NCBI GenBank assembly: GCA_964414715.1 | Contig: CAYPXN010000040.1 | Location: 5,988-69,987, forward strand | Source: an uncultured Pseudomonadota bacterium | GTDB taxonomy: Bacteria > UBA10199 > JADFYH01 | Length of the DNA stretch: 64,000 nt | Reading direction: 5' to 3' | Part shown: positions 9-42,227 of the stretch, piece by piece | Layout: every line of letters starts with the position of its first letter | Numbering within the stretch: the first letter of the stretch is position 1 | Translations under genes and position numbers: made by a program | The notes under the pieces: model-generated | Seen by the model: only the letters and a program-made list of their open reading frames with translations | Told to the model about the DNA's origin: nothing | Database searches by the model: none

Positions 9-3000
9 ATGGTGATGAAAGGTAAAGCAGGTGTTTACGAAGGAGCTCGAGCCCGTTTTTTTGGTTTCATGGTGGAAACGGGTCCTGGTTGGCGATTGGA
101 CGGTTACTTGGGCGGCACTGAAAATAATATTTCAGATCAAGATCTCGCAAAAAGTACTCTCAAGCTTGCCCAGTGGTTTGTAAAAGAAGGAAAATACTCC
201 ACCGCTGCTCAAATCGCCTCTCTTATCAGCGAAGATATCTATGTAGGGGCTGAAGCAAAAAAACTCATCGAAGAAGATATTCCCTCAAGCGCGAAGTGGG
301 ACACGATACTCAACGCAGGTCACGGGCTTTTATATTTTACTCCTCTTGCTCCCGCCGTGGCTTTTGCCGATGTTTCTTCTCCTGCAACCATTGGTGAAGA
401 AAGTGGTGATACTCATGCATTGAATGCCTTAAAGGGAGTGGCTATGAATGCTGCCACCACGATAGTCCCCTTTGGCATTGCTCGCTGGGCAAGAGTGGGA
501 GCTGAAGCTGCATTCGTTGCGCGTGCTGCGACTTTAATTGAAAATCCCGCTGCTTTCAAAATTGCTGGATTTCTAGTCGGAACCACTACTGAAGCAGGAG
601 CCTTTACTCTTTCAAACATGACACTTCAATCCATGATGACGGGAAGTACCGCTAATTGGAATATCAAAAATTTTGGAAAAGAATTTGGATCCATGATGGT
701 GACTTTTGTTCTCTTGCATGGCGTGAGCATGAGAATGGAAAAAGTTGGAAAAAGTTTAGAAAAAGCAGGCGCTCTCGATACTTCTATTGGAAAAACTACT
801 TTTGGAGCGGCTAGCTGGGGAGTACGTGTCGGATCTTTTACAGCCACTGAATATATTAATGAAGCTATTGGCTTGAAAGAGCATGAAAATGTTCCTTTAT
901 GGATGCGTTTGCTGAGCTCGGCCATCACCGATGCACAAATGGTCAAAGCCGGAAAAGTGGTAGACATCCTGAGTGGTGGAAAAATTTCTAAAACAGAACA
1001 GGCAACACAATTAAAATACAAAGCTCATGAAATATTACCGACTTTGAAAAAAATAGGTTTCGATTTTAATCCTAATCCTGACCCCGGTAGTGGCCCTGGC
1101 TCTGGAAACATAATTCATACTGACTTTTCTTCACCCTTTCCTCAAAGTCCTGCGGAACTTGTGTTAAGGATCCTTGTTCAGAACTCTGTTCAAACAGGTC
1201 GTTTGGAAACGCCTCCTCAAGATACCATTGATCGTATTCATCAAATAATTAGCGATGGAAAAACAGACCTCCACTCTCCGGAAGGGCAAGCAAAGCTGGC
1301 GCTTTGGGTAACTTATGCACTGAGAGCAGGCGAGGGAGGAAAAAGTTTAACGGGTCCTGAGTTGGAACGCAATTATCATGAGCTCGATACAGGCACAAAA
1401 ACCTTTATTCAACAATGTGGTATAGACGGCGACTCGGCCTTGGGAAAACAGATCCAGGTCGAGTTGATGAATTTTGTTCTCAGCCGAAACATTTCTCCTA
1501 CCGAGTTCGGAAAATATTTGGAACATACTTCTGATATTTATAACACTTTGCACATGATTGCCTCTTCGCTTACCGGAAAGCCTGCGAGCTCTACTCCGGA
1601 AGGTCAAAAAATTATGGCGGGACTCATGCTGAGTCTTGCCCGCTCCGGAGACAATGCAGATCATATCCACGAATTGTGCGAACGATTAAGTGATGTCGAG
1701 CATGACTTAAGGTCTACGAATTTTTTCACACTGTCCGAAGCAAACACGCCGGATCAAAAACTTGCCCTCTTGTACTGGGCGGTGGAAAATGAAGTGTCGC
1801 AGGGAGATCTTGTTAAAATTGCAAATAACATCGAAGCTGGAAAATTGCATTTCGCATGGGAAAACGGGGATGTAAACTTAAGAAAGGGAGAAGGGGTTTT
1901 TGAACTTCGACCTGAAAACATTATTCATCCTGTGAGCGATGAACAAATTATTTCAGAAACACCCATTCCAGATACGGACAAGAAAGTCGCGGACGTTCAA
2001 GCCCCTCCCGTAGATGAAGCGTCTCAACGTGTGGCAGCCAGAGGAAAAGTCCAGGCTTCCCTGGTAAAGTCTGAACCCGTTGAAATATTGAATCGCTTGG
2101 CGAAGTCTTTTGGTATTTCAAAAAATTCGAGCTTTGTTCATGATCTTTCAGGCACAACAGCAGCTCGACATATTGACCCGGCAAAAGTAGAAAGCATTCT
2201 TAAAAAACTCAATCAAGCCCTTCAGGCAACAAAAATAAATCAGCGCTCCTTTAAAAATCCTGAGGCTGTTCGTGAGGAACTTTTCAAGAGAGTGGTGGAG
2301 GGAAAAATTACTGAACCCTTTGCCCAAATGCTTTTCGAAAAATGTAAAAGCCGAGAAATTAGTCCTGAAGATTTGGATTTTGTTTTGGGTTTTGATGCGA
2401 ATGGACGCAACATAGCTCTATTGGAAGCTGTTCCTGAATTGGGAGTCCAGTCCGCTTGGTTGGAAAAACTGGTCGAAAATCCTAAAGCATTTTACGACAA
2501 AGTAAAACGAGTCACCAATACGGACGGACGCCTTTTTAACCTTTTTAATATCATTTCCAAAGGACGAGAACTTAGCAAAGATGAAAAGGCAATTTTGATT
2601 CACAACCTCGAAGAAGCGGGCTTCAAAATTCCTGCTGCAGACAAAGAACAATATTTCGACGGACTGATTAGCATTATCAAAAATTACAATTCCTTAGGGC
2701 TAGAGGAGGTTTTTTCCTCTTCGGATCTTATCACACTCATGGCGGCACTTCACATGCACGGCGCAACCCCCGTCATTTCTGAGGCAAAAATGAAAGCTCT
2801 GGAGGATATTCCAGATCTTCTCCTTCGAAGACAAGCTTTCTTAAAAGTAATTTTAGAAGGCAATATGTCTGGATCGTCAACATTTGATCCTGTACGAGTA
2901 GCAGAAGGAGTAATGAATAATAAATGGGCTAAATCTGTTTTTTTAGATTTTGAGAATTCTTCTCATACACAAGCAAGACATCTTGCAGAAGGCAGCACGC

Positions 3001-6000
3001 CTTTTGCAAAAGCAGCCAAAGATTTCTTGGCAGGTAAAATTTCCGTTAATCAATACCATGAAACCCAGGATGCAATTGCAAAGCAAATGGTAAAAGATCA
3101 TCGTGTTGCGGGGGCTAAAGTTCTCTCATTTTTAAATATTTTAAGTTCGGATCCCTCTCTTAATATCAGTAAAAAACCACCTCCAACTGCTCGAATGAAA
3201 TCTATCACTGATATCGTGCCTAAAATAATACGACGGGGTTATACTCATGATGCAGCTCTTACTGATATTGCCGCTACTCGTGTGATTGTAAAATCAAATT
3301 CCGATGTAGAAGCAGTCATCGCAAAAATTCAGGAAAAATATCCCATTCGTGAGACTTATACCAAAGAGGGAGAAATAGAACTGGATCTCATGGATCCTGC
3401 TGAAGTGAGAGCACGAGGGCTGCCTGAAGTGGAAAATGAAGTTTGGTTGGATGTAAAGCCTGACAAAGACGCCATTCATCGTTTAGTCGAAGGTCATCCA
3501 GCAAGTGGTTATCGAGCTTTGCATGTCGTGGTTGAAATAGACGGAAAGCCCGTAGAAATCCAAATCAAAACCGAAGCGATGAATGAATGGGGAGAGATCG
3601 AACATAAACTCGTTTATAAAAACAAGAATCTTCCCGATGCAGTTATGGAACCCATCAAGGCATTCCGTAAAGCAGCGGCTGATTATTTAAGCAAGGCAGA
3701 ACATCTCAAACCGGGTGAAACTTTGGGAGAAATGCCCAAAGCCCCAGATATCCCGGACAACATTCCCAATGTAGCTGAAATTCGCAAGCAATTGGAAGCC
3801 ATGACAGCGCTAATGGAAAAATACACACCGGCTGTCGATGAATCACAAATCCCGATAGGCACGGGCTACACACAGGATGTAGGACGCAATTCTCCTCAGG
3901 AAATCCAAGAGATTGGACAAAGAGGAATGGATTTTGCTCAAGCTCTTCGGGAAGGAAACGAAAAAGACATTCCGCCTGCCTGGATCAGAAATATCTCTTG
4001 GACAAGTGAATATGGAAAACCTTTCTCTCGTCAGGCAGCTCTTCTTGCACAAACAGCAGCCCGAAACATTCCAATTTTAGTTCAAGAAATCCGTGCAAAA
4101 GAAATTTCTTATAGAAAAACAGGATCCACAGAAGAAAAAGGAAGAATCCTGAATCAACTGGACGATCTGTATATTCGCCTTGATCATCACAGTCAGGACC
4201 TGGAAAGATGGAAAAGGGTTTCTGATGGCGTAACACAATACGCAAAATCAATTTCAGACTTCTCCTTTCCTTATGTTCGTGATTCGGTAAGACACAGTGT
4301 GCGAAAAAATATGATGGAAACTGGTCGAAATAGGGAACACATGCCTGAACCGCCCTTGTCTCCGGTTTCCTTCGATATAGAAAGACCTGACTGGAGTGAA
4401 AACCCTGATCTGCGGGGAAATTTGATGGAAGCAGGTTTTGCCGGGCGAGATGTTTCATTGAATGACTACTCCATTCACTTTACAGTTTCGACTGAAGCGG
4501 AGCGTCGTAGTCTTTTGAACTTTATCGAACAAAACCCTGAAAGTAGAACTTATCGTATTTCTTCCGAAAGCCCTCATGTACTTCGCGTCCGCACCCCGCA
4601 GGGAAAAGATTTTCTGCTTGAAGTTCATCTTGCAAGCGAACGAAGAAATGCGAATACAGTCCCTGCAGAAGAAGATCTCCTCTTGGCTGCGGAGGCAAAA
4701 CCAAAACCAAAAGCCGTAGAACATGTTGAGTCCGAAGCGATGGTAAATCACGACGGGGGAGAGGGAGATGTAAGCAAAAATGTTTCTCCCAACAGATCTG
4801 AAGAAGCTACCAATCCTGGCATCAGAAGAAGAGGGCTTCCGGATGGCAGCTCCGCTCTCGTTTTGGGGATTCTCGCCGGAGGAGCAGCACTTCTTTACGG
4901 TTCAGATGCTCATGCAGCTGTTCATGAAGCAGGGAAAGCGATTTCAGATCCCGGCCACCTGATTTTTGAAGGTCTAAAATATGCAGCAGGATTCATTCCT
5001 GTTTTGGGAATGTTTTTTGGAAAAGGAGGGGGTGATAAAAAAAGTGTCGCACCAAGCATGGAGGTAAAACCCAATCCTCAGGATTCCGTCATTCTAATCG
5101 GCAGGAAGTACGGGCACTTTACAAATGATACTTCTGTATCCGGAACTCACTGCACACTGTATAAAACTTCTACAGGACAATGGGTTTTGCAAGATGGCGA
5201 CGCACAAGCAGGTCAGATCAAAGCAAGTAAAAATGGGGTTAAAATTTTGGATGCCGCAGGTAATGAAACGCCTCTTCCCAGTGGAGGAAGAACTTTTTTG
5301 CAAGACGGACAAGTGATTCTTGTGGGAAAATCAGCATTCATCTTTCGATCTCCGGATGCTCCTTCTCATCTCCAACAAGCTGTTCCCGGAGTTCCGCATA
5401 ATGCTGCCGCACGGGCTAGCGTAAAGCCTGCGCGCCAAAGCCCTGTGCCTGCAATCGATTTTACACAATATCCCTCTCTGACAATCCCTTCGACTTCGAA
5501 TCCTCGTGAAGAATTTATCATTGGAAATGCTGTGTATGAAGCTGGGGGTGGACAGGTGAATCATCTCACGGAGGACGGAGACCCCCATGCACGAGTTTAT
5601 TTTTCACTTCGAACCAACATTCAGGGCAAGTGGTTTGTTTATGATGGGAGAGTTGGGGGAGCTGAAAAAAGTCCTTATGGTATCGAAGTCATGATTTCGT
5701 CCGGAGAACGAAAAAGGGTTAATGGTTTTTCAGAACTTAATCCTGGAGATTTGATTATCTACAAAACACAGCGGGGAGAGCTTGTATATCGTTTTGATGG
5801 CCAAACTTCAGAAACTCCTTCCAGACCCGTAAGCGCAAACCCGGCAGACAAGGCACCAGAACCACCTCGCGTTTTGGCAGTATATGATGTTTCCAAATTT
5901 GCAGATTTAAGCGAAAACAACCCGAACTGGAAAAACAAACAGGGAGCTATTCCTGGGGTCGCTTTTGCCTCTCATGAAGGTGTGGGATACAAAGATCACA

Positions 6001-8948
6001 ACGAAGATCGTTATTACGCGATGAATTTGGGAGATGGTCGTACCATTACTTTTGCAATCGATGGTATGGGAGGGCAGGTGGGAGCAGAAAGGGCTGCCGA
6101 GATTATTCGTTCTTCCCTCGAAAGAGCCTTTGCGGAAGGTGCCAACATTCATGAAGCCATCGATGTAGCGAAGCGCACTCTAAGGGCTGTCAATCAACCC
6201 ATTGTCGATAACTTTGTTGCAAAAGGTAAAAAAGCTTATGAAGCAGATCCTCACTTACCAGGAGCGGTAGCTGTAGGGGTAAGCACAAAGGCCATTGAAG
6301 GTGGAAAATATGAAGCAGAATTTGTCAGCATTGGAGATGCAGAAGCGATTGTCATTCGACCTTCAGCCGATGGACGTTCAGCTCCCACCGTTCCTTTTTA
6401 TACCTCTAGACCTTCTGCCATGAATCTGCTCCTGCCCGATCGTAAAACTCCCACCCTTCAAGATGGCTCAGGTCGCAGACAAAGAAACTATACACTCGTG
6501 GAACGCCTCAACCCGATTGCAAACATCGTGGCTGAAGGACTGGGTCTTTCTTCTTCTGATATTCACTCTGATAAACAGGTATTGGAAAAAGGAGATATTA
6601 TCATTTCGGGTTCCGATGGATTTTTTGAAAACTTTGGCAGCTTTGATGAAATTGCAAAAGTCGTTCAGGCAAGTGGACAAAAAACTCCCCAGGGAATTCG
6701 GGATGCCTTGATGCGGGAAGCTCTTTTGCGTCAACAATTATTGAAAATGAGACAAAGTGGAGAAGTTCTTGAACTTACACACGAGAAATATGCTCTCGCT
6801 TATCAAACACTATTCCAACAGCAAGCCCCTGCAGGATGGCGTGGAATGTATGAATCCTCTCCCTCTCAACGTTTTGTTTTGGATAATAATGGCAATGTGG
6901 GAAGATGGGAAGACGTTGATCCCGCAAGTAAAACACTCAAAGAGCTCAACAATGTCCCACTGGCGATCACACACTTCAAAAGGGATAATACGACAGTGGG
7001 AGTTCAAATCTTGGGAGACAGCACTCCTCCTGTGCCTGAAGCCAAACCTGTTAAAGTAAGTCCTCCTCCACAAGAAGCACCCGTTGCAAAAGCTCCTGTG
7101 GGCGCAAAATTTCCTGATCCCGTTGCTCCAAGAGCAGGCAATGCCTATCATGTAGATTCGAATCCCACGGTCATCATGCCTGCACTTCGTCCCGAAAAAA
7201 TTCCTTGGCAACAAGTCGTAGGCAGCCCTTATCATTCGGTCATTTTAGGAAGACCTGCCAAGCAGGCTGGAGCCTCAAACCCCGCCAATCTTTTTCCTGT
7301 CGATGACCAGGCCATCGGCAGACGTCACGCTGAAATTGTAGTTGGGGCAGATGGCACGCGTTGGTTAAGAGATCTCAGTTATCAGGGAAGCTCGAAGGGA
7401 GAAAATTATGGAACTTGGGTTGCAGAACAGAACGCCTGGAGAAAACTGGCACCTGGAGAAAATTACCCATTAAAGGCAGGACAATCTTTCGCGCTGGGAA
7501 GCGTGATTGAAGAAGGAATGTCTCTGCCTTCGACAGGTGTAGGTCTTCCCAGCAAAAAATATAACCTCGATAACAGCATCGTTTATATATTGGGAACGGA
7601 TGGAAACACCTTGTTTAGCAATTCCCGTCCAACATCGAGAGGAGATCTTCTTCAAAAACCCGCAGCAGATCCTGTTATCGCAGGACGTGCTGCAATACGT
7701 CCTGTTCCGGTGAAGGATCTTCCACACACACCCTTGAATTCTTCCGGAGTAAGAATAGAAGGGAAATTGTATGGTGAAACGCCGGTACAAAATTTTTCTC
7801 TCCAAAATGTTTCTCAAGATCCAAACAAACCCACTTGGATAAGTGTTGCTTTTGGCGATCAACCTCGCTTGATTCAAGGATTTCCGGATACTTCCGGACA
7901 ACCTTTGTTCAAGGTAACCACCCGCAATGGAAAATACTATCTGCAACTGAATGCGGATCTGAGTCATGATGGTTGGAGCATAGACGGAACTCGACGTAGT
8001 ATGGGACAACAAGTGCTGGAAGGTGGAAAAACTTATCAAATTAAGATTGGAACTCATGATTTTAGTTTAACCTTACCTACTGCAAGTCCTGTCGTGGCAG
8101 AAGCAGCTCCTCCGAATACACAAAACCTTCCCAGAGAATGGCCTCCCTTGGGCAGCGCTGATACTATTATAGGAAGGGCAGATGGAAGTATTGCCCCACT
8201 TCATGATGGAAGAGGAATAAACTTTATCGATGATAGCGAAATTCGTACTATTTTTAGCCGCGCTTCAGAAGCAAAGGGTCGAGCAGATGGTGTTCCCTTT
8301 TCTGTTGACCGCTTTGGTCGTCATGTAATTCAGCAACAGGGGCAACGAGGCTGTACCGCTGCTGCAAGCGGAATGCTTATCCTGGATCAAGGTGGAAACT
8401 TAAGTGGAAGAGAAGTAAGAACTAGAAATTTAGGGAATGAAAAAACTACCGCATCGGATATTTATTATGCAGGACTTATTCCTATTCTTCCTCGGGGTGT
8501 GCAAAATCTTGAAACAGCCATCCAAAAACACGGTTCTATGGTTGTAGGTATTGGTGGAGAAATTGGAGGACATGTTATTGTTGTCGATTATTACTCGGAA
8601 GCAGAAGGAGTCGCCAGAATTCGAGATCCTTTTCATGGCTGGAGCATTGAAACCACGACAGATGCATTGAAAAGTCGGGGGGCTCGTGTTGAAGTGGGCG
8701 CTCAAAATTTTCAAACATTTTTTGCAGGTACTGCGCTTGCTGGAGTGCGTAGCCACGAACAGCTCAAGGATCCTGTCGGACTACTGGAACAGTATCTTCA
8801 AAACAGGGGTCAATGGAACAGCAACAAAATTACTATTGATAAGTTGATTGATTATATCAGGGCTCGCAGTTTCGTCATGGATTCTTATAACGACTCCATG
8901 AAGGCAAAATTGGATACTGTTCTCAGAAAATACGCTTATCCCAACTAA
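9..8948 (+). CDS. Giant multidomain protein of at least 2979 aa, probably 5'-truncated by the window edge. Contains a RelA/SpoT-like nucleotidyltransferase domain, a hydrophobic hairpin, FHA x2, a PP2C phosphatase, FHA x2, and a C-terminal papain-like Cys/His region.
   Basis: Uninterrupted ORF of 8940 nt. The frame is also open in the 8 nt upstream of the first ATG, so the true start probably lies outside the window. Motifs read from the translation: DIAATRVIV...GYRALHVVVE...EIQIKTEAMNEWGEIEHKLVYK (Rel/SpoT synthetase signature); NEDRYY...FAIDGMGGQ...SGSDGF (PP2C); G-R / S-R-x-HA / NG-T FHA signatures (VILGRP...IGRRHAEIV...GSSKGENYGTWV). Confidence 0.85.
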   Translation: MVMKGKAGVYEGARARFFGFMVETGPGWRLDGYLGGTENNISDQDLAKSTLKLAQWFVKEGKYSTAAQIASLISEDIYVGAEAKKLIEEDIPSSAKWDTILNAGHGLLYFTPLAPAVAFADVSSPATIGEESGDTHALNALKGVAMNAATTIVPFGIARWARVGAEAAFVARAATLIENPAAFKIAGFLVGTTTEAGAFTLSNMTLQSMMTGSTANWNIKNFGKEFGSMMVTFVLLHGVSMRMEKVGKSLEKAGALDTSIGKTTFGAASWGVRVGSFTATEYINEAIGLKEHENVPLWMRLLSSAITDAQMVKAGKVVDILSGGKISKTEQATQLKYKAHEILPTLKKIGFDFNPNPDPGSGPGSGNIIHTDFSSPFPQSPAELVLRILVQNSVQTGRLETPPQDTIDRIHQIISDGKTDLHSPEGQAKLALWVTYALRAGEGGKSLTGPELERNYHELDTGTKTFIQQCGIDGDSALGKQIQVELMNFVLSRNISPTEFGKYLEHTSDIYNTLHMIASSLTGKPASSTPEGQKIMAGLMLSLARSGDNADHIHELCERLSDVEHDLRSTNFFTLSEANTPDQKLALLYWAVENEVSQGDLVKIANNIEAGKLHFAWENGDVNLRKGEGVFELRPENIIHPVSDEQIISETPIPDTDKKVADVQAPPVDEASQRVAARGKVQASLVKSEPVEILNRLAKSFGISKNSSFVHDLSGTTAARHIDPAKVESILKKLNQALQATKINQRSFKNPEAVREELFKRVVEGKITEPFAQMLFEKCKSREISPEDLDFVLGFDANGRNIALLEAVPELGVQSAWLEKLVENPKAFYDKVKRVTNTDGRLFNLFNIISKGRELSKDEKAILIHNLEEAGFKIPAADKEQYFDGLISIIKNYNSLGLEEVFSSSDLITLMAALHMHGATPVISEAKMKALEDIPDLLLRRQAFLKVILEGNMSGSSTFDPVRVAEGVMNNKWAKSVFLDFENSSHTQARHLAEGSTPFAKAAKDFLAGKISVNQYHETQDAIAKQMVKDHRVAGAKVLSFLNILSSDPSLNISKKPPPTARMKSITDIVPKIIRRGYTHDAALTDIAATRVIVKSNSDVEAVIAKIQEKYPIRETYTKEGEIELDLMDPAEVRARGLPEVENEVWLDVKPDKDAIHRLVEGHPASGYRALHVVVEIDGKPVEIQIKTEAMNEWGEIEHKLVYKNKNLPDAVMEPIKAFRKAAADYLSKAEHLKPGETLGEMPKAPDIPDNIPNVAEIRKQLEAMTALMEKYTPAVDESQIPIGTGYTQDVGRNSPQEIQEIGQRGMDFAQALREGNEKDIPPAWIRNISWTSEYGKPFSRQAALLAQTAARNIPILVQEIRAKEISYRKTGSTEEKGRILNQLDDLYIRLDHHSQDLERWKRVSDGVTQYAKSISDFSFPYVRDSVRHSVRKNMMETGRNREHMPEPPLSPVSFDIERPDWSENPDLRGNLMEAGFAGRDVSLNDYSIHFTVSTEAERRSLLNFIEQNPESRTYRISSESPHVLRVRTPQGKDFLLEVHLASERRNANTVPAEEDLLLAAEAKPKPKAVEHVESEAMVNHDGGEGDVSKNVSPNRSEEATNPGIRRRGLPDGSSALVLGILAGGAALLYGSDAHAAVHEAGKAISDPGHLIFEGLKYAAGFIPVLGMFFGKGGGDKKSVAPSMEVKPNPQDSVILIGRKYGHFTNDTSVSGTHCTLYKTSTGQWVLQDGDAQAGQIKASKNGVKILDAAGNETPLPSGGRTFLQDGQVILVGKSAFIFRSPDAPSHLQQAVPGVPHNAAARASVKPARQSPVPAIDFTQYPSLTIPSTSNPREEFIIGNAVYEAGGGQVNHLTEDGDPHARVYFSLRTNIQGKWFVYDGRVGGAEKSPYGIEVMISSGERKRVNGFSELNPGDLIIYKTQRGELVYRFDGQTSETPSRPVSANPADKAPEPPRVLAVYDVSKFADLSENNPNWKNKQGAIPGVAFASHEGVGYKDHNEDRYYAMNLGDGRTITFAIDGMGGQVGAERAAEIIRSSLERAFAEGANIHEAIDVAKRTLRAVNQPIVDNFVAKGKKAYEADPHLPGAVAVGVSTKAIEGGKYEAEFVSIGDAEAIVIRPSADGRSAPTVPFYTSRPSAMNLLLPDRKTPTLQDGSGRRQRNYTLVERLNPIANIVAEGLGLSSSDIHSDKQVLEKGDIIISGSDGFFENFGSFDEIAKVVQASGQKTPQGIRDALMREALLRQQLLKMRQSGEVLELTHEKYALAYQTLFQQQAPAGWRGMYESSPSQRFVLDNNGNVGRWEDVDPASKTLKELNNVPLAITHFKRDNTTVGVQILGDSTPPVPEAKPVKVSPPPQEAPVAKAPVGAKFPDPVAPRAGNAYHVDSNPTVIMPALRPEKIPWQQVVGSPYHSVILGRPAKQAGASNPANLFPVDDQAIGRRHAEIVVGADGTRWLRDLSYQGSSKGENYGTWVAEQNAWRKLAPGENYPLKAGQSFALGSVIEEGMSLPSTGVGLPSKKYNLDNSIVYILGTDGNTLFSNSRPTSRGDLLQKPAADPVIAGRAAIRPVPVKDLPHTPLNSSGVRIEGKLYGETPVQNFSLQNVSQDPNKPTWISVAFGDQPRLIQGFPDTSGQPLFKVTTRNGKYYLQLNADLSHDGWSIDGTRRSMGQQVLEGGKTYQIKIGTHDFSLTLPTASPVVAEAAPPNTQNLPREWPPLGSADTIIGRADGSIAPLHDGRGINFIDDSEIRTIFSRASEAKGRADGVPFSVDRFGRHVIQQQGQRGCTAAASGMLILDQGGNLSGREVRTRNLGNEKTTASDIYYAGLIPILPRGVQNLETAIQKHGSMVVGIGGEIGGHVIVVDYYSEAEGVARIRDPFHGWSIETTTDALKSRGARVEVGAQNFQTFFAGTALAGVRSHEQLKDPVGLLEQYLQNRGQWNSNKITIDKLIDYIRARSFVMDSYNDSMKAKLDTVLRKYAYPN

Positions 8949-9018: not shown

Positions 9019-11157
9019 CTAAGTCCTCCCCAAAATCCTCTTGTTCACTCCCAAATAATAACTTCTGTCTGCACGGTTGCGCAAAAACATGGGAAGATTT
9101 TCTCCAATTCTTGCTGCATCTCTCCATGTGCTTAATTCATAATGGGTCATGGTCCAGCGTTCTTCTTCGAGATAAGCCATCATTTCAGAAACGATCCTGC
9201 TGTGTCGATCCAGTGAGTAAATGACAGGGTCTGCTCCAACCTCCATTTCATCGTAATTTCCCGTCCTGTGTTTCCAGTGCTCCCATTCATGAATCAGCGC
9301 CTGCAATCGCATGACCACTTCGTCTCGAGCACGAGAAATTCCTTCGTGGGTCTGCATGTTGGGCCGAGGAATATTTTTAATTACAATCAAATCCTCAATC
9401 TCTGTTCTGGGAACAAAAAAAGCCACTCCACAGTCACTGGGGGCATGCAGGGAAGAAGCCATTTCCTGAAACTCTGCTTCATCCACAATAAGAATTTGAA
9501 AAGCATGGGAATGCCATGCCCTTTTCAAACTTTCTATATGAGGAGTAGTATTTGCTTCCAGAAGTAAAATCATTTCTTCTTCTGTAAAAGGTCTTCCTGA
9601 TTCCAGAAATGCAAAGACATTATCAAGCACTCTTCTTTTTGCTTCTTCCACCTTATGTGGATTTTTTAGAGATTCTTCCACGTCCATCATCACCGAAACC
9701 ACTTTTCTGGCCAGACGCTCATCATGGATAAAAGCAGTGGCCGAGCTTCCATTCATGAGATGAGCCACCAACTGGGGATCTATTCCATTGTTTACCATCC
9801 AAGCAATGGAGCCCAGTTTATCTTCCGAATGATCTCCTTCCGTGATTTCTTTCAGCTTGTAAGGAGAATCTTCCACTGCAAAAATTTGGCAGGCTCGTCG
9901 GAACACCAACATTCCTGCTGGACTTCGAAGGGCATAGGCGAGAACTTTATAAATATCCTTGGCCTCGTAACGTCCTCCCCTGAGCGCCTGAACAACAAGA
10001 GTAGAGTTTTTGATAAAGTCACGAAGATCCTGAAGGCTCAAACGATTCGAATAAGAAAACTCATCAAACAGCTTGTAAATTTCTGCCCGAGTGATTCCTT
10101 GCCGCATGGCCTCCAAAATTTTTCCCAAACGTTCTTGACGAAGCTGGGGAGCTTCGGAAATCCCTCGACTCAACAACTCATGCAACAACATGCGGTCAAA
10201 ACCACCTGTAGGCGTTTTATCTGCTTCGGTCGTAAAAACTTCCTGTATCCCTCGTAACACATGAAGTTGTTCCAGTGTTCCCGCTTGTGGCATGCGAGAA
10301 CAAATCTCAAGCAAGCTTGTATAATGACCCATTTTTTCAAAGGGAGTTTCCAGAGCGGTTTCAATAATTTCTTGCACATAATTGTCACGATAGGGGAGAT
10401 CGGGAAAACGCGGTTTCCATGTATCTAACCAATGTTGACGCTCGGCAGGATCCTTGAAATCAAACTCGTCTCGAGGGCTTGCAAAAACTTTCAGACCTCT
10501 TTGCATCGTTTCTTCAAAAACAAAGTCTTGCTTTGAAAGTTCCGGGCCTTGAACAAGACTCTCCATGGCTTTTGTTTCACGAGCTGATATTCCCCCGGTA
10601 ACCAGTTCTCCCAAACTCATTCCCACACCCATTGCCGTATTGGTCATTTCGGCGTGGAGATATTGCTGAGTGAGAGATCCTTCAGGAGCAAGAGTCAGGT
10701 GTAGGGCATAGCTGAGATGTTCTCCCGCCACCATTCCCGTATCCTGGATAAAATGATTGAGGAACAAATGGGAGCTGCCCAATTTCCCAAAAAGTTTCAG
10801 ATTGGCAAAGTTCAGGTAAGTGCCCAGAAATTCTTCGCGCGAAAAAACAGAGGAGAGGGAAGCGTTGTTTAAAAGAATTTGACTTCCGCGATAGGCACTC
10901 ACTTCTGTAAAAAGACCCACCAAAGGAGCCAAGACTTTGCCGGCAAGAGGAGCAATGGCATCATTGGCCAAAACAGCCGCTTTTCCAAAGCGATAAGCGA
11001 GCCCGCCTGCCATCATGGAAAGAGTGTTTCTCCAATTGCACGCCTCTTCCATGAACTGGTGATCCAGGGCATCCATTTCCCTTTGTTGGGAAGTCAAGTT
11101 GTGGGAGGAAGGCAAGGATGAGCTCACGCTCATTCTGCGATCCAAGAGGTTCATCAT
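9019..11157 (-). CDS. Hypothetical 712-aa protein with a C-terminal HExxH (HEWEH) zinc-metallopeptidase-like motif. Convergent with the giant gene. No signal peptide.
   Basis: A 2.1-kb ORF cannot be chance. The motif LIHEWEHWKH lies near the C-terminus. The stop codon is TAG. No family recognised by eye. Confidence 0.7.
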   Translation of the reverse strand: MMNLLDRRMSVSSSLPSSHNLTSQQREMDALDHQFMEEACNWRNTLSMMAGGLAYRFGKAAVLANDAIAPLAGKVLAPLVGLFTEVSAYRGSQILLNNASLSSVFSREEFLGTYLNFANLKLFGKLGSSHLFLNHFIQDTGMVAGEHLSYALHLTLAPEGSLTQQYLHAEMTNTAMGVGMSLGELVTGGISARETKAMESLVQGPELSKQDFVFEETMQRGLKVFASPRDEFDFKDPAERQHWLDTWKPRFPDLPYRDNYVQEIIETALETPFEKMGHYTSLLEICSRMPQAGTLEQLHVLRGIQEVFTTEADKTPTGGFDRMLLHELLSRGISEAPQLRQERLGKILEAMRQGITRAEIYKLFDEFSYSNRLSLQDLRDFIKNSTLVVQALRGGRYEAKDIYKVLAYALRSPAGMLVFRRACQIFAVEDSPYKLKEITEGDHSEDKLGSIAWMVNNGIDPQLVAHLMNGSSATAFIHDERLARKVVSVMMDVEESLKNPHKVEEAKRRVLDNVFAFLESGRPFTEEEMILLLEANTTPHIESLKRAWHSHAFQILIVDEAEFQEMASSLHAPSDCGVAFFVPRTEIEDLIVIKNIPRPNMQTHEGISRARDEVVMRLQALIHEWEHWKHRTGNYDEMEVGADPVIYSLDRHSRIVSEMMAYLEEERWTMTHYELSTWRDAARIGENLPMFLRNRADRSYYLGVNKRILGRT

Positions 11158-13506: not shown

Positions 13507-14070
13507 CTATTCGCGTGGACAGCAGGCTAGAAAAATAGTTATGCTAACATTTGTTGTTGCATTTGGAGTAAGCACACTACAATACCTACCTCTAATAATA
13601 GCCTCCGAATCAGGAATGCCCCCAAAACACAATGCACCAGGAACAATAAAACTTTTTATTGCTGAACTACATGGACCCTCTAGAAACCAAGTAGGAATTG
13701 CACCATTGGTAGAAATACTACAACCTCCACTTACAGCCACTTGACCAGAGCCGCAATCTAATTCACCTGTAACACCTTGCCTGGCAGTGAAACTTCTGTG
13801 CACTTCCCTACAGCCACTCCAAAGAATCCCAGGCCCCCTCGGCCCAGCAGGCCCTTGCAAACCCATCGGACCTATTGGTCCCTGAGGCCCCTGAATTCCT
13901 TGGGGCCCACGCTCTCCCGCTCTCCCTGGAGGGCCTTGAGGACCCGGATCTCCCGTGAAGCCTCTAGGGCCTTCACTTCCATTTTCTCCTCGCGGACCTC
14001 TTTCTCCAGTACAGCTTTCTAATAACAAGCCTGCCAAAGCAACGGCTCCAATAGCAACAATGGGCAGCAT
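13507..14070 (-). CDS. Collagen-like triple-helix repeat protein (about 25 G-X-Y triplets) with an N-terminal hydrophobic anchor or signal and a Cys-rich C-terminal globular domain.
   Basis: Translation [70 protein letters not shown] 7 nt upstream of the second ATG ([10 protein letters not shown]...). The ORF track starts 11 codons earlier. Confidence 0.75.
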
Positions 14071-14191
14071 AAATACCTCCTTGTTTGGTATCCATGTGCC
14101 CACCTAAAGTTTTACTTTCTTAAATTTTAACTCGATAAAATACAAGAAAAGTTGTTAATATTTCTCAAGCGAACACAACACGGAGCGTTAT

Positions 14192-27050: not shown

Positions 27051-27707
27051 ATGGCTATAAGCACTGAACTTCTGAAACTACTTGTTTGCCCCAAGTGCAA
27101 AAAGGCTCTTCAGTATCAATCTAAAGAAGATGCTTTGCTATGTTCTTCTTGTTCACTTTTGTACCCTATACAGGAAGGCGTTCCTGTGATGAGCGAAGAA
27201 GAAGCTTTTGAAATCGGAAAGGGAGGGGAACTTATGACCAAAGCTACAAAGTCACCGGTAGCTATTTTCAAAATCAAAGAGGGTCCCAACCAAGGTGAGT
27301 CTCTTAAGCTCCCTCTCGATTCTTGTCGAGCCATTGGAAGAAGCATCGACGATGTGAACAAAACCCAAATCTTCAACATGGAGCCTATTGTTCCACTGGA
27401 TGACTTTACCAAAAAACTCGTCTTGAATTATCTTTCCAAGAAAAAGGGTAAAGCAGCTCCTGCAAAAGCAAACACTGAAAATGCCTTTGGAAGTTTTAAA
27501 AGACTTCCAGACTTGGTCCTCAACGATCCAGCCATTTCCAGACTTCATGCCATGCTTTTTTATGATGAGAGTGGGGCGGGAATATTAGATTTGGTTTCCA
27601 GAAATGGTACTTTTGTAAATGGTCAAGAAGTGGAGTCTCGTACTTTAAAAGAAGGGGACCTCATTGAAATTGGTGCCACTAAAATTGCATTTTCAATGTC
27701 GAACTAG
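27051..27707 (+). CDS. Trm112-like zinc-ribbon domain fused to an FHA domain.
   Basis: N-terminus LLKLLVCPKCKKALQY...LLCSSCSLLYPIQEGVPVM (Trm112/UPF0434). C-terminus AIGRS...ISRLHAML...SRNGTFVNGQ (canonical FHA motifs). Confidence 0.7.
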   Translation: MAISTELLKLLVCPKCKKALQYQSKEDALLCSSCSLLYPIQEGVPVMSEEEAFEIGKGGELMTKATKSPVAIFKIKEGPNQGESLKLPLDSCRAIGRSIDDVNKTQIFNMEPIVPLDDFTKKLVLNYLSKKKGKAAPAKANTENAFGSFKRLPDLVLNDPAISRLHAMLFYDESGAGILDLVSRNGTFVNGQEVESRTLKEGDLIEIGATKIAFSMSN

Positions 27708-29223: not shown

Positions 29224-31383
29224 ATGGTCACTCTCGAAAAGATCATTCAGAACATCAAATCCTACAACCCCCAAGGGGATTTTTCTCTCATTCAAAAAGC
29301 AGGGGATTTTGCCAGTAAGGTTCATAAAGGCCAAGAAAGGCAATCCGGAGAACCTTATATTATTCATCCTCTCGAAGTTGCTGAAATTCTTGTTCAAATG
29401 AAACTCGATGTTCCGTCTATTGTTGCAGCACTGCTTCACGATACGATAGAAGATACTTCTGCAACTCTCGACGAAATCAAAAAAGAATTCGGACCTGAAA
29501 TTGCCCACTTGGTAGATGGCGTAACCAAACTCAGCAAAATTCAATTTTCGAGCGCACAAGAAAAACAGGCCGAAAATTTTCGCAAAATGATCATGGCTAT
29601 GGCGAAAGACATCCGGGTTATTCTGATCAAGCTTGCGGATCGCCTCAACAACATGAGAACTCTGAAACACCTCTCCGAAGAAAGACAACAAAACATTGCC
29701 CGCGAAACCATGGATATCTATGCTCCTTTAGCAAACCGTTTGGGAATCCAGTGGATGAAGGTTGAACTCGAGGAGTTATCTTTCAAATATCTTAAACCTG
29801 AAGCCTATAAAGATATTGATGAAAAAATGAGGCAGGTTAAAAAAGAATCTGCTCCTTATATTGAGAAAGTGCTCCAGGAAGTTTCAAGCAAGCTGAATGA
29901 GTATAAAGTTCCCCATCAAATTTATGGTCGCCTCAAACATTATTTTAGTATTTACAGAAAAATGGCGGCCCAAAACATTTCTTTTGAACAAGTAAATGAC
30001 TTGATTGCTTTCCGAATTATCGTGGACAACATTACACAGTGTTATACTGCCCTAGGAATTATTCACGAACTTTGGACCCCCATCCCCGGGCGATTCAAGG
30101 ATTACATTGCCATGCCCAAGGCAAACAACTATCAATCACTCCATACCACTGTAGTATGCATGGAAGGAGAGCGTGCAGAATTCCAGATTCGAACGAAAGA
30201 AATGAATGAAGTGGCGGAAAAAGGGATCGCTGCACACTGGAACTACAAAGAAAATGGTTCGATCGACGACAAAGATCAGCAAAAATTTCAGTGGGTACAG
30301 GAACTGCTAAAATGGCAAAACGAACTCAAAGACCCGGCCGAATTTCTCGATACCGTCAAACTTGATTTATTTGCCACAGATGTTTATGTTTTTACACCCA
30401 ATGGTGATGTGAAAGAACTTCCTCACGGAGCCACTCCTATTGATTTTGCCTATTCCATTCACTCTGACGTGGGAAATCGCTGTGTGGGTGCAAAAGTAAA
30501 TGAAAAGATTGTCCCTCTTAATTATCGCTTACGAAGCGGTGACACCATAGAAATTCTCACAAGTGCCCATCACAAACCCTCCAAAGACTGGCTTAAATTC
30601 GCCGTCACTTCCCGGGCAAAATCCAGGATTCGCCAAGTAATTCAACACGAACAACGAGAAAAAAGTATTATCCTGGGAAAAGAGTTAATTGAAAAGGAAT
30701 TCGAAAAATTCAAACTTTCCCCCTCAAAATACATGAAAGGGGAAGAACTCAAGCACGCCATTCAGGAAATGGGCTATCAAAATCTTGAAACCTTACAAAT
30801 GCACGTGGGTTATGGAAAAATTTCTCCCTTACAATTTATTTCAAAACTCGTTCCACGTGAACTTCTTGCAGAAAAAGCTTCAGAAGAAACAAAAGCCGAA
30901 AGTACTCTTTCCAGAATTTTCAAAAAGGTAAAAGAACGTGGTAAGAGCATTGTAAAAGTAGGTGGCTACGACGACATCATGGTATCTTTGGGGCGTTGCT
31001 GCTCCCCTCTACCTGGAGATCCTATCATAGGATTTATTACGCGAGGCAGGGGAGTTGTGGTTCACATTATGGACTGTGCCAAGGTTCTTTCCACAGACCC
31101 CGAACGAAGAGTGGAGGTTGCTTGGGACAAACACAGTGAAGCTTCTCATCAGGCAAAACTGAAAATTGTAAGTGCAGACAGACCTGGCCTCTTAGCATCC
31201 ATGAGTAAAACTATTGCCAATGAAGGGGTCAATATCTCTCAGGCTTCCATACGAACCACGAGTGACGAAAAAGCAGTAAATATCTTTGAAGTGGAAATCA
31301 AAAACATCTCCCAATTAAAAGGAGTATTACGGGCCTTGGAAAAATTGGGAGGAGTAATCAGCGTGGAGAGAATAAGGAATTAA
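29224..31383 (+). CDS. spoT: Bifunctional (p)ppGpp synthetase/hydrolase, Rel/SpoT long RSH.
   Basis: HD hydrolase domain (HPLEVAEIL..HDTIED), synthetase domain, and TGS plus ACT C-terminal domains. Length 719 aa. Confidence 0.9.
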   Translation: MVTLEKIIQNIKSYNPQGDFSLIQKAGDFASKVHKGQERQSGEPYIIHPLEVAEILVQMKLDVPSIVAALLHDTIEDTSATLDEIKKEFGPEIAHLVDGVTKLSKIQFSSAQEKQAENFRKMIMAMAKDIRVILIKLADRLNNMRTLKHLSEERQQNIARETMDIYAPLANRLGIQWMKVELEELSFKYLKPEAYKDIDEKMRQVKKESAPYIEKVLQEVSSKLNEYKVPHQIYGRLKHYFSIYRKMAAQNISFEQVNDLIAFRIIVDNITQCYTALGIIHELWTPIPGRFKDYIAMPKANNYQSLHTTVVCMEGERAEFQIRTKEMNEVAEKGIAAHWNYKENGSIDDKDQQKFQWVQELLKWQNELKDPAEFLDTVKLDLFATDVYVFTPNGDVKELPHGATPIDFAYSIHSDVGNRCVGAKVNEKIVPLNYRLRSGDTIEILTSAHHKPSKDWLKFAVTSRAKSRIRQVIQHEQREKSIILGKELIEKEFEKFKLSPSKYMKGEELKHAIQEMGYQNLETLQMHVGYGKISPLQFISKLVPRELLAEKASEETKAESTLSRIFKKVKERGKSIVKVGGYDDIMVSLGRCCSPLPGDPIIGFITRGRGVVVHIMDCAKVLSTDPERRVEVAWDKHSEASHQAKLKIVSADRPGLLASMSKTIANEGVNISQASIRTTSDEKAVNIFEVEIKNISQLKGVLRALEKLGGVISVERIRN

Positions 31384-42099: not shown

Positions 42100-42227
42100 C
42101 ATTCCTAAAATAAGTGATGAGACCCTAATCAATAATCTAAAAAACAATAGACAGCAACCCCTTCTTTGCCCTTAAAATAGTGGAATTCCGAGGAGCGGGA
42201 CTTTTTTTCACACTTCAGGGGAGGCTT

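Follow-up and report, generated by a model that had tools for sequence, protein, structure and literature searches.

A giant ORF from an uncultured bacterium of the UBA10199 lineage raised the question of whether four FHA-like segments around a PP2C phosphatase form an array of phosphothreonine readers, and what such an array would do on one very long chain. The locus was analysed within a window, which here means the whole stretch of 64,000 nucleotides of DNA. The reading that we favoured, with a probability of about 0.55, was that the ORF carries a genuine FHA-FHA-PP2C-FHA-FHA cassette in a lineage-specific giant protein, where it would act as a KAPP-like, membrane-tethered phosphatase on a signalling scaffold.

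The giant protein and its carrier family

The whole cassette was spanned by one ORF, of which 2979 aa were encoded in the window without an in-frame upstream stop. The homologues P0001-P0003 (3515-3965 aa) could be aligned to it from their own residues ~970-1100. This meant that ~1000 N-terminal aa of the giant protein lie beyond the window, and the full-length protein probably has ~4000 aa. When metagenome contigs were searched with exact 50-mers for the missing 5' part of the gene, no match was obtained. The modules were ordered as RelA/SpoT-like, hydrophobic hairpin, FHA1, FHA2, PP2C, FHA3, FHA4 and C39-like cysteine peptidase, and Pro-rich linkers joined the enzyme modules. The features of the locus were as follows.

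9..8948, plus strand: giant ORF, 5' end open at the left window edge, at least 2979 aa; syntenic locus in L012 and L013
9..1058, plus strand: family-defining conserved core, aa 1-350; Ala/Gly-rich hydrophobic helices, 30-66% identity to 8 homologues (alignment A5)
3192..3629, plus strand: RelA/SpoT-like nucleotidyltransferase of the small-alarmone-synthetase type, aa 1062-1207 (Pfam PF04607, 73.9 bits)
4845..5021, plus strand: putative membrane hairpin, aa 1613-1631 and 1655-1671 (hydropathy scan and sequence reading)
5076..5363, plus strand: FHA1, canonical, aa 1690-1785 (Pfam FHA, 27.9 bits, E 3.2e-6)
5511..5813, plus strand: FHA2, degenerate FHA fold (hhalign to the FHA1 profile, 95.6%, E 1.1e-8; AF2)
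5961..7022, plus strand: PPM/PP2C phosphatase domain, aa 1985-2338 (SpoIIE, PP2C_2, subfamily profile against the PDB)
7236..7508, plus strand: FHA3, distinct 'LGRP...GTW[VI]' subtype (Pfam FHA, 23.5 bits, E 7.5e-5)
7749..8078, plus strand: FHA4, FHA-like on its predicted fold alone (AF2, pLDDT 81.8, pTM 0.75, 10 strands)
8127..8678, plus strand: C-terminal C39-like cysteine peptidase, papain fold (26 homologues; Q2776, C2782, H2855 and D2860 conserved)
9019-11157, strand opposite to the giant ORF: downstream gene, 712 aa; synteny conserved, no Pfam match

The conserved core (aa 1-350) had no match in the PDB or Pfam. When it was used as a search probe, it retrieved UBA10199-type MAGs only, and the best match among GTDB representatives had 52% identity. 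The members of this previously unannotated family were roughly 2000-4300 aa long. Several paralogues were found per genome, three of them in tandem, and they carried kinase, metalloprotease-like and other modules; Pkinase/APH-like domains were found in the paralogue P0005 of a related MAG. The locus itself was a conserved housekeeping neighbourhood (hemC/hemD ... murJ), in which the adjoining genes were housekeeping ones or unknown. A BLAST module map and conserved synteny showed that the enzymatic modules were shuffled among positional orthologues at this same chromosomal locus, so that close relatives combined one conserved N-terminal chassis with variable modules. The window copy had RelA/SpoT, PP2C, FHA3 and C39. 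In their place, P0001 had a non-homologous segment of ~560 aa with an 'LLHDAGKWD' motif and a different C-terminal domain. P0004 was without PP2C, and its FHA3 was duplicated. The 712-aa downstream gene was considered as a paralogue of the core and ruled out (hhalign 0.3%). The window also encoded a second, small FHA protein, which was canonical.

In the case of the RelA/SpoT-like region, a partial NCBIfam match to GTP diphosphokinase was also obtained. This domain occurred together with the PP2C subtype of the window in 9 other giant proteins. A scan with PADLOC defence models gave a weak match only, PDC-S33, at the same region. The C39-like domain was recognised through its homologues, of which P0084 (26.2 bits) and P0052 (25.1 bits) were above the Pfam Peptidase_C39 cut-off of 22. 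The window copy had no Pfam match, and a single-sequence PDB search with the C-terminal domain found none. Five of eight homologues started with Met-Gly; myristoylation-like N-termini were ruled out because the residues after Met-Gly did not fit the consensus.

The scaffold reading is weakened by modules shuffled in this way, by paralogues in tandem and by the cysteine peptidase at the C-terminus, which are all seen more often in toxins and effectors that are delivered than in signalling proteins with housekeeping roles. Bilobed hydrophobic hairpins are also typical of translocated Inc-type effectors, and the hairpin of the window protein resembles them. These features suggest a different function, in which a prey or host cell would receive the exported giant protein, or pieces freed from it, in the manner of MARTX or polymorphic toxins. 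PP2C would erase host Ser/Thr phosphorylation, the RelA/SpoT-like module would make toxic nucleotides, the C39-like module would process the chain and the core would translocate it. Tas1 is reportedly a toxin of the RelA/SpoT type delivered by a secretion system. The likeness to MARTX and polymorphic toxins lies in the very large size, the swappable enzymatic modules, here exchanged at the C-terminal side among the window protein, P0001 and P0004 and extended by the kinase and metalloprotease-like paralogues, and the embedded cysteine peptidase with its intact Q/C/H/D set. However, the window protein differs from them in having no RTX repeats, known delivery domain, immunity-like gene or secretion neighbours, and its modules are typical signalling enzymes. 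When the window protein, P0001, P0004, P0005, P0008 and P0024 were scanned with Pfam, delivery domains such as RTX, Rhs or LXG were absent from all of them. An N-terminal hydrophobic signal peptide was absent from the full-length homologues, and no secretion system was adjacent. Neither a secretion-system gene nor an immunity-like gene was found in the four loci examined. Immediately downstream there was no small immunity-type protein, the next gene being the 712-aa one on the opposite strand. The conserved housekeeping neighbourhood also argues against delivery, and the UBA10199 literature gave no information on function or lifestyle and names no host or prey. An A-[AG]-R motif recurred in the inter-module linkers and could serve as a cleavage site; its enrichment was real but modest (p=0.03) and confounded by Ala-rich helices, and it was set aside in this role. 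Taken together, we regarded export as a serious but rather unlikely function.

A broader form of this idea, which we hold with still less confidence, is that the ~4000-aa proteins of UBA10199 are "enzyme polyproteins" used against other cells. They would form an undescribed class and combine a conserved chassis of TPR and hydrophobic core, acting as a new device for membrane insertion or delivery, with swappable FHA-guided PP2C, RelA/SpoT-like, HD, kinase and C39-like cargo that is set free or rearranged at A-[AG]-R sites of the linkers. If this were true, the cassette would be a delivered eraser of phospho-signalling, and the degenerate FHA folds would recognise targets without phosphorylation.

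FHA folds and phosphothreonine pockets

Four FHA-fold modules bracketed PP2C on one chain, as the sequence-only reading had proposed. FHA1, FHA3 and the phosphatase were recognised by Pfam, FHA2 by hhalign, and FHA2 and FHA4 by AF2 and Foldseek. In the case of the Pfam FHA scan (PF00498, curated cut-off 20.7 bits), FHA1 and FHA3 scored above the threshold, and FHA2 and FHA4 gave no match at E≤10. FHA2 was tied to FHA1 by hhalign, and FHA4 was tied to neither FHA1 nor FHA3. The same reading had seen the G-R / S-x-x-H / N-G signature in all four segments. It was complete in FHA1 only.

The pocket of FHA1 comprised G1698-R1699, S1711-x-x-H1714 and S1740-x-N1742-G1743. Its profile matched the FHA domains 3hx1 and RNF8 in the PDB, and the FHA domain of KAPP (PDB 1mzk) was among its weak matches. 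Comparison of the pocket residues (Arg of G-R, Ser/His of S-x-x-H, Ser/Thr-x-Asn in the loop between β6 and β7) showed that FHA1 is the sole module of the four with the full residue set predicted to bind phosphothreonine. In the closest orthologues, P0001 and P0002, Lys replaced the Arg of FHA1, which meant that even this pocket is not strictly conserved.

The other three modules were shown to be FHA folds in which part or all of this residue set is lost. The canonical columns of FHA2 read G-N, A x x Y and S x Y G, with changes of Arg to Asn, Ser to Ala, His to Tyr and Asn to Tyr, and these replacements were conserved among orthologues. The AF2 model of FHA2 had a pLDDT of 77.3, and the top 14 PDB matches in Foldseek were all FHA domains. 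Rad53 FHA1 was among its fold matches. A profile search of the PDB with FHA2 found nothing. The hhalign result marks FHA2 as a diverged copy of FHA1. FHA3 had been called textbook. Its columns read G R G x H / E x Y G; G-R and His were retained, and the window copy had Gly2437 (codon GGC) in place of Ser and Tyr2467 in place of Asn. Its orthologues retained the Ser. Against the PDB, FHA3 gave a weak match to 3gqs.

In the case of FHA4, FHA domains made up ~45 of the 50 best PDB matches in Foldseek. The best was 3gqs (E 2.8e-3, probability 1.0), and YscD (4a0e) was also present. A sequence signal was absent from Pfam on the isolated segment, from profile comparisons with FHA1 and FHA3 in hhalign and from a profile search of PDB sequences. 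Weak matches to the cell-wall-binding repeats of toxin A were dismissed as chance. The pocket columns of FHA4 were G-D and D-G without S-x-x-H, in a register inferred from the strands of the model, and just three homologues were found among 1.84 billion representatives. The models of FHA2 and FHA4 both had the β-sandwich fold of solved FHA domains. They were built on alignments of 4-5 sequences, and their Foldseek matches had modest E-values (2.8e-3 to 0.1) and TM-scores of 0.35-0.63.

These results bear on the proposal of four readers and one eraser, in which four functional modules would make a tetravalent phosphothreonine scaffold around the phosphatase and could cluster upon phosphorylation as in Rv1747, which has two FHA domains and is reported to cluster in this way. 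All four modules adopted or matched the FHA fold, FHA3 kept Arg and His with Ser present in its orthologues, and the 2+1+2 order was conserved in the distant relative P0027. However, the residues of the pocket were intact in FHA1 only: FHA2 had lost Arg, Ser, His and Asn to replacements that its orthologues conserve, FHA4 had lost every one, and FHA3 of the window protein was partial, without Ser and Asn. We therefore considered four functional readers very unlikely, since degenerate FHA folds elsewhere fail to bind phosphothreonine (PMC4925161).

The PP2C domain and its FHA neighbours

The Pfam scan for a PP2C phosphatase was positive with SpoIIE (27.1 bits, cut-off 25), and PP2C_2 fell short of its threshold (20.6 bits, cut-off 24). 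NCBIfam gave a partial match to Stp1 (E 1.7e-6). A single-sequence search of the PDB gave marginal matches only. With the subfamily profile, tPphA was matched at E 3.8e-11, followed by Stp1, PppA and PstP, and the motifs lined up. Each of the four motifs whose Asp coordinates metal in PPM enzymes, (R/K)xxNED, DGxGG, SDG and DN, had its counterpart, namely NED (D2000), IDGMGG (D2018), GSDG (D2203) and RDN (D2326). The residues N34, E35, D36, D54, G55, G57, G58, D239, G240, D362 and N363 were invariant in alignment A6, and they aligned with the tPphA motifs NQD / DGMGGH / SDG / RDN. Among 11-26 family members that shared 30-60% identity, the four Asp motifs did not vary. This conservation across distant giant proteins suggested selection on the catalytic residues. 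The domain retains its catalytic metal ligands and looks like an active enzyme.

The catalytic core and the four motifs were thus shared with tPphA, PstP, Stp1 and PppA. However, the window PP2C belonged to a separate subfamily with a conserved, helical insert of ~80 aa between the SDG and DN motifs. This subtype, which barely reached the Pfam thresholds, was found mostly in giant or FHA-fused proteins.

An FHA domain was located at most 450 aa upstream of the PP2C subtype in 19 of the 44 copies with enough upstream sequence, and most of these upstream domains were canonical (G R S x H S N G). In P0027, a distant protein of 7278 aa, the same order of two FHA, PP2C and two FHA was found. These results showed that FHA and this PP2C subtype, side by side, form a unit that has recurred in evolution. 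Since the unit recurs and the metal ligands are kept, it is reasonable to propose that the phosphatase docks in a phosphorylation-dependent way. A decayed array, in which a pseudo-phosphatase and pseudo-FHA modules are mere spacers in a giant structural protein, would fit the three degenerate FHA modules of four, the PP2C scores close to the Pfam thresholds and the large insert, but it is hardly credible beside Asp motifs that stay invariant across distant giant proteins and align with those of active enzymes, and beside a fully canonical FHA1.

A phosphatase proposed to be aimed by one FHA domain

The favoured reading, a membrane-tethered and FHA-targeted phosphatase, begins at the hairpin. 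A His-rich loop of 23 aa separated its two hydrophobic segments, RRR flanked it upstream and KGGGDKK downstream, and it was conserved in P0001-P0004. Arg/Lys on both outer flanks would fit a cytoplasmic, membrane-tethered protein. The order of anchor (aa 1613-1671), FHA1, FHA2 and PP2C was found on the chain, the anchor being a putative one called from hydropathy alone. The two-helix hairpin would hold the cassette in the membrane with both flanks in the cytoplasm. FHA1 would bind a Thr-phosphorylated partner, which may be a kinase of the Hanks type or a substrate of one, and perhaps a paralogous giant protein that bears kinase domains. As in plant KAPP and Deinococcus DRA0334, docking of FHA1 would deliver PP2C to neighbouring pSer/pThr sites. 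The degenerate FHA folds may be modules for phospho-independent interaction or spacers, as in EssC and YscD. The cassette would be one enzyme module among several, beside the RelA/SpoT-like synthetase and the C39-like peptidase. With several enzyme modules on one chain, the whole protein may best be read as a membrane-associated signalling scaffold that acts in the cytoplasm of the cell that makes it. FHA, PP2C and RelA/SpoT domains all depend on cytoplasmic substrates.

The absence of a Ser/Thr kinase from the window, stated earlier from the letters alone, was consistent with the scans, with no Pkinase match in Pfam among the 31 ORFs scanned and no Hanks catalytic-loop motif in the ORFs of 200 aa or more. 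It means little. The paralogue P0005 bears kinase-like domains, and with the small canonical FHA protein of the window it speaks for phospho-signalling in the lineage.

In Arabidopsis, KAPP consists of a membrane anchor, a KI-FHA domain and PP2C; its FHA docks on a phosphorylated kinase, which PP2C then dephosphorylates. The window protein has anchor, FHA and PP2C in the same order on a single chain. However, KAPP has ~580 aa and one FHA domain, whereas the window protein has at least 2979 aa, four FHA folds of which three are degenerate, the PP2C insert of ~80 aa and, as the only one of the two, RelA/SpoT-like and C39-like modules. The resemblance is architectural, with no close sequence kinship detected. 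In proteins of the Rad53/Chk2 type, a catalytic domain of phospho-signalling is likewise flanked by FHA domains on one chain. There, two functional FHA readers flank a kinase, whereas the window protein has a phosphatase and one canonical FHA. The bacterial protein DRA0334 of Deinococcus radiodurans combines KI-FHA with PP2C, and its FHA gives substrate specificity towards Ser/Thr kinases (bioRxiv 10.64898/2026.01.23.701218). It shares the fusion of FHA and PP2C on a single chain with the window protein. However, it is small, has two domains and lies in an operon with a kinase and an FHA partner, whereas the window protein is a giant with extra degenerate FHA folds and no kinase gene found in the window. 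The N-terminal tandem FHA folds of EssC are without phosphothreonine-binding residues and have structural or protein-interaction roles (PMC4925161). Such β-sandwiches are shared with EssC and YscD/EscD. Those proteins are components of T7SS and T3SS, whereas the window protein was found in no secretion context and its degenerate folds lie beside a canonical FHA and a phosphatase.

The count of readers at this locus shows that functional FHA readers are overcounted by motif-spotting. The core logic of the cassette is not new, since fusions of FHA and PP2C are already established as a means to direct a phosphatase to phosphorylated partners. What is new is a distinct PP2C subtype surrounded by a single canonical reader and three FHA folds that are degenerate, a layout that recurs in distant giants. 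Also new is a carrier family that is limited to the poorly known candidate phylum UBA10199 and swaps whole enzyme modules at the same locus. These results make it testable whether degenerate FHA folds play a role in targeting, why the RelA/SpoT-like domain and PP2C travel together, and whether the giant proteins of this lineage are scaffolds or delivered effectors.

FHA folds and phosphothreonine pockets

The FHA/PP2C array (nt 5083-8073) was located inside a single plus-strand ORF (9..8948, 2979 codons), in which residue i = nt 9+3(i-1). No in-frame stop was found 5' of this ORF within the window, and the closest homologues (3515-3965 aa) matched it only from their residues ~970-1100 on. The giant gene is thus cut by the window edge. 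The full protein probably has ~4000 aa, with ~1000 N-terminal residues outside the window, and this part is TPR-rich in homologues. The source contig was not recovered when metagenome contigs were searched for exact 50-mer matches. The chain was organized as follows.

Module order: RelA/SpoT-like, conserved unknown region, hydrophobic hairpin, FHA1, FHA2, PP2C, FHA3, FHA4, C39-like peptidase
3192-3629, plus strand (aa 1062-1207): RelA/SpoT-like nucleotidyltransferase domain (PF04607, 73.9 bits)
8127-8678, plus strand (aa 2707-2890): C-terminal C39-like domain, outside the FHA/PP2C range on the same chain

A Pfam scan was performed on the whole giant protein and on isolated segments, with an FHA cut-off of 20.7 bits. 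FHA1 (aa ~1706-1773) gave 27.9 bits (E 3.2e-6) and FHA3 (aa ~2413-2497) gave 23.5 bits (E 7.5e-5). The FHA2 and FHA4 segments gave no Pfam match even at E≤10, and their alignments, built from the few available homologues, were shallow. In hhalign, the profile of FHA2 matched that of FHA1 (95.6%, E 1.1e-8, 78 columns). The AF2 model of FHA2, made from its shallow alignment, had a pLDDT of 77.3, and its 14 best PDB matches were FHA domains (KIF1A, ArnA, KIF13B, RNF8, Rad53 FHA1; prob 0.92-1.0). FHA4 had no sequence relationship to FHA1, FHA3 or any PDB sequence. Its AF2 model, also made from a shallow alignment, was confident (pLDDT 81.8, pTM 0.75, ten β-strands), and FHA domains made up ~45 of its 50 top Foldseek PDB matches. 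The best was the Chlamydia CT664 FHA (3gqs; E 2.8e-3, prob 1.0, TM 0.50/0.62), and YscD (4a0e) was also among the fold matches. The Foldseek E-values for both models were modest. In sum, all four modules belong to the FHA family by fold, and two of them by HMM score.

The phosphothreonine (pThr) pocket was read from an alignment with canonical FHA domains of related proteins. FHA1 was complete (G1698-R1699, S1711-x-x-H1714, S1740-x-N1742-G1743) and each of its motifs aligned with its counterpart in the solved FHA of Slr1951. FHA3, a member of the distinct LGRP...GTW[VI] subtype, retained G-R and His. Its phosphate-contacting Ser, kept in FHA3 orthologues and canonical FHAs, was replaced by Gly2437 (codon GGC), and Tyr occupied the canonical Asn column, where relatives have His or Gln. 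FHA2 showed Arg->Asn, Ser->Ala, His->Tyr and Asn->Tyr, all conserved among orthologues. FHA4, in the register set by the strands of its model, had G-D and D-G without S-x-x-H. By column, the pocket residues indicated one putative canonical reader (FHA1), one partly degenerate module (FHA3) and two fully degenerate ones (FHA2, FHA4). FHA folds without pThr residues are known from the tandem FHA domains of EssC, where their use is structural (PMC4925161).

The sequence-only reading was right that FHA-like modules bracket PP2C on one chain, in the order FHA1, FHA2, PP2C, FHA3, FHA4. However, it had given all four the G-R / S-x-x-H / N-G signature, which was complete only in FHA1 by the aligned columns, and the Ser and Asn substitutions mean that the third module is not the textbook case it was taken for. 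Its formula of four readers and one eraser held for the intact PP2C motifs and for canonical FHA1, but failed on the degenerate pockets of FHA2-FHA4.

The PP2C core and its pairing with FHA

PP2C-clan Pfam matches were found at aa ~1996-2240, with SpoIIE at 27.1 bits (cut-off 25) and PP2C_2 at 20.6 bits, under its cut-off of 24. With aa 1600-2799 as the query, HMMER was run exhaustively against 1.84 billion representatives and retrieved 105 proteins, ~40 of which contained this PP2C subtype at full length. NEDR, IDGxGG, PGAV, GDxEA, GSDGxFENF and FKxDNxT were invariant or nearly so in alignments of 26 and 11 members. The subfamily profile matched the solved bacterial PPM phosphatases tPphA (E 3.8e-11), Stp1, PppA and PstP, and D2000, D2018, D2203 and D2326 aligned with their motifs NQD, DGMGGH, SDG and RDN. 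The profile match and the full set of metal-binding motifs place the predicted enzyme in the PPM/PP2C family, and since these motifs are invariant and match solved PPMs, it looks catalytically competent. It carries ~80 extra residues between SDG and DN (123 aa vs ~40 in solved enzymes), and this segment has conserved positions of its own.

FHA and PP2C were mapped in all retrieved proteins using a local FHA profile and the PP2C profile. An FHA was present ≤450 aa upstream in 19 of the 44 PP2C copies with ≥150 aa of upstream sequence, and most of these FHAs were canonical (G R S x H S N G). One homologue (P0033) has an FHA on either side of PP2C. In P0027 (7278 aa, ~29% identity), the order of two FHA-like modules, PP2C and two FHA-like modules is repeated at residues ~5890-7021, and of these FHAs only the last is canonical. 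The 2+1+2 cassette thus predates the lineage of the window. This map showed that an FHA adjoining the PP2C subtype is a conserved unit, to which the window's lineage has added degenerate copies.

A giant family at a fixed locus

When 5.8 billion proteins were searched with a word index, only eight whole-protein homologues (2070-4314 aa) were found. Common to them are an N-terminus rich in TPRs and a hydrophobic core of ~350 aa, rich in Ala and Gly, that had no match in Pfam or PDB. Beyond the core, they diverge module by module. P0001 has a non-homologous ~560-aa segment with 'LLHDAGKWD' instead of RelA/SpoT, lacks FHA3 and ends in another C-terminal domain. P0004 lacks PP2C and has a duplicated FHA3, and P0005 has Pkinase/APH-like domains. 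The genes of P0001 (locus L012, 10001-21898) and P0004 (locus L013, 10001-17992) lie at the same chromosomal locus as window 9-8948, with the shared order hemC, hemD, giant gene, ~740-aa opposite-strand gene, two ~330-aa genes, collagen-repeat gene, murJ. Judged by gene order, these and the window gene are positional orthologues with shuffled modules. Two of the neighbors in the window were as follows.

9019-11157, minus strand: 712-aa gene immediately downstream of the giant gene; no Pfam match; HEWEH (HExxH-like) near the C-terminus
13507-14103, minus strand: collagen triple-helix repeat protein (PF01391, 36.3 bits)

The former is syntenic with the giant gene and encodes 739 and 784 aa at orthologous loci; the latter has a syntenic counterpart in L012 (27172-28122). 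The 9019-11157 product was rejected as a relative of the giant protein's core (hhalign 0.3%). Elsewhere in the window, two patatin-like phospholipase genes, 38529-39764 (minus) and 42180-43484 (plus), lie <4 kb apart.

A core probe against 185,579 species genomes gave 11 loci, all in UBA10199, STL-UBA or "Deltaproteobacteria bacterium" MAGs. Giant paralogues numbered up to four per genome, with three in tandem. The literature on UBA10199 gave no functional information. In related MAGs (loci L015, JAXMHI010000004.1, and L016), giant paralogues lie in islands of large genes without Pfam annotation. One such island includes a SIR2-domain gene, and in L016 the giant paralogue is followed directly downstream by another giant gene that has a RelA_SpoT domain.

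The RelA/SpoT-like domain and the PP2C subtype occur together in at least nine other giants (P0010, P0024, P0025, P0027, P0030, P0031, P0033, P0037, P0038), and where a source is named for them, it is a MAG of the same kind. This co-occurrence suggests a functional link between the modules. The C-terminal region (aa 2707-2890) had 26 homologues, mostly small stand-alone proteins, and some pass Pfam Peptidase_C39; in P0052 it is fused to PP2C. Q2776, C2782, H2855 and D2860 were conserved in ≥92% of members, which makes the domain a predicted cysteine peptidase of papain fold whose catalytic set is intact.

Proposed mechanism and alternatives

FHA1 sits ~200 aa upstream of PP2C, and the linkers between modules are Pro-rich. 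The hydrophobic segments 1613-1631 and 1655-1671, which are conserved in orthologues, have RRR on one flank and KGGGDKK on the other. From hydropathy, they may cross the membrane as a hairpin whose two flanks are both cytoplasmic. By docking at a pThr site, FHA1 would hold a partner for dephosphorylation by PP2C. We give a probability of about 0.55 to such a FHA1-docked, membrane-tethered PP2C acting in the producer's own cytoplasm, with a logic like that of KAPP and DRA0334. The plant protein KAPP has an anchor-FHA-PP2C logic, and its FHA (1mzk) was a weak profile match of FHA1. Deinococcus DRA0334 has an FHA + PP2C logic (bioRxiv 10.64898/2026.01.23.701218). The cassette resembles each in working logic and is homologous only in the shared domains. 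Rad53 has a similar FHA-enzyme-FHA layout, but its enzyme is a kinase, whereas that of the window is a phosphatase.

FHA, PP2C and RelA/SpoT domains require cytoplasmic substrates. The homologues had no signal peptide, and no secretion genes were found near the giant gene at the examined loci. This makes the cytoplasm of the producer the more likely place for the protein to act. The earlier statement that the window holds no Ser/Thr kinase gene agreed with a negative Hanks catalytic-loop motif screen of window ORFs (≥200 aa) and with an HMM scan of 31 ORFs, which gave no Pkinase match. Two other signalling genes were present.

27051-27707, plus strand: small FHA protein, Trm112p-like zinc ribbon and canonical FHA (56.7 bits)
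29224-31383, plus strand: regular long RSH enzyme, 719 aa (HD_4, RelA_SpoT, TGS, ACT)

The former, between skp/ompH and the yicC-gmk-rel genes, is a predicted second pThr reader. With the long RSH as the housekeeping enzyme, the RelA/SpoT-like domain of the giant protein is an additional copy. These genes indicate that pThr signalling and normal alarmone control exist independently of the giant protein.

A delivered multi-effector is a possible but clearly less probable explanation. It is supported by the exchange of modules between positional orthologues, by paralogues in tandem, by a cysteine peptidase in the chain, by an Inc-like hairpin and by an A-[AG]-R motif recurring in linkers; however, the homologues and examined loci showed neither a delivery determinant nor an immunity gene or secretion system. 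AAR occurred 35 times vs 15.0±3.9 in shuffles (~2.3-fold). A-[AG]-R fell in Pro-rich windows in 11/53 cases vs 11% expected, a weak excess (p=0.03), and ARA and RAA were also elevated. The motif lies at module junctions in the window protein (aa 676, 1800, 2558; nt ~2034, 5406, 7680), P0001 (aa 2916, 3514) and P0004 (aa 1408, 1637, 2015, 2340), and could be a processing site or junction scar. Four functional FHA readers are unlikely, as the pocket residues contradict them. An inactive PP2C/FHA remnant is very improbable given the invariant catalytic motifs.

The interest of the cassette lies less in four readers and one eraser, which was unsupported, and more in an unannotated, lineage-restricted giant family whose signalling enzymes are shuffled while the locus stays fixed.
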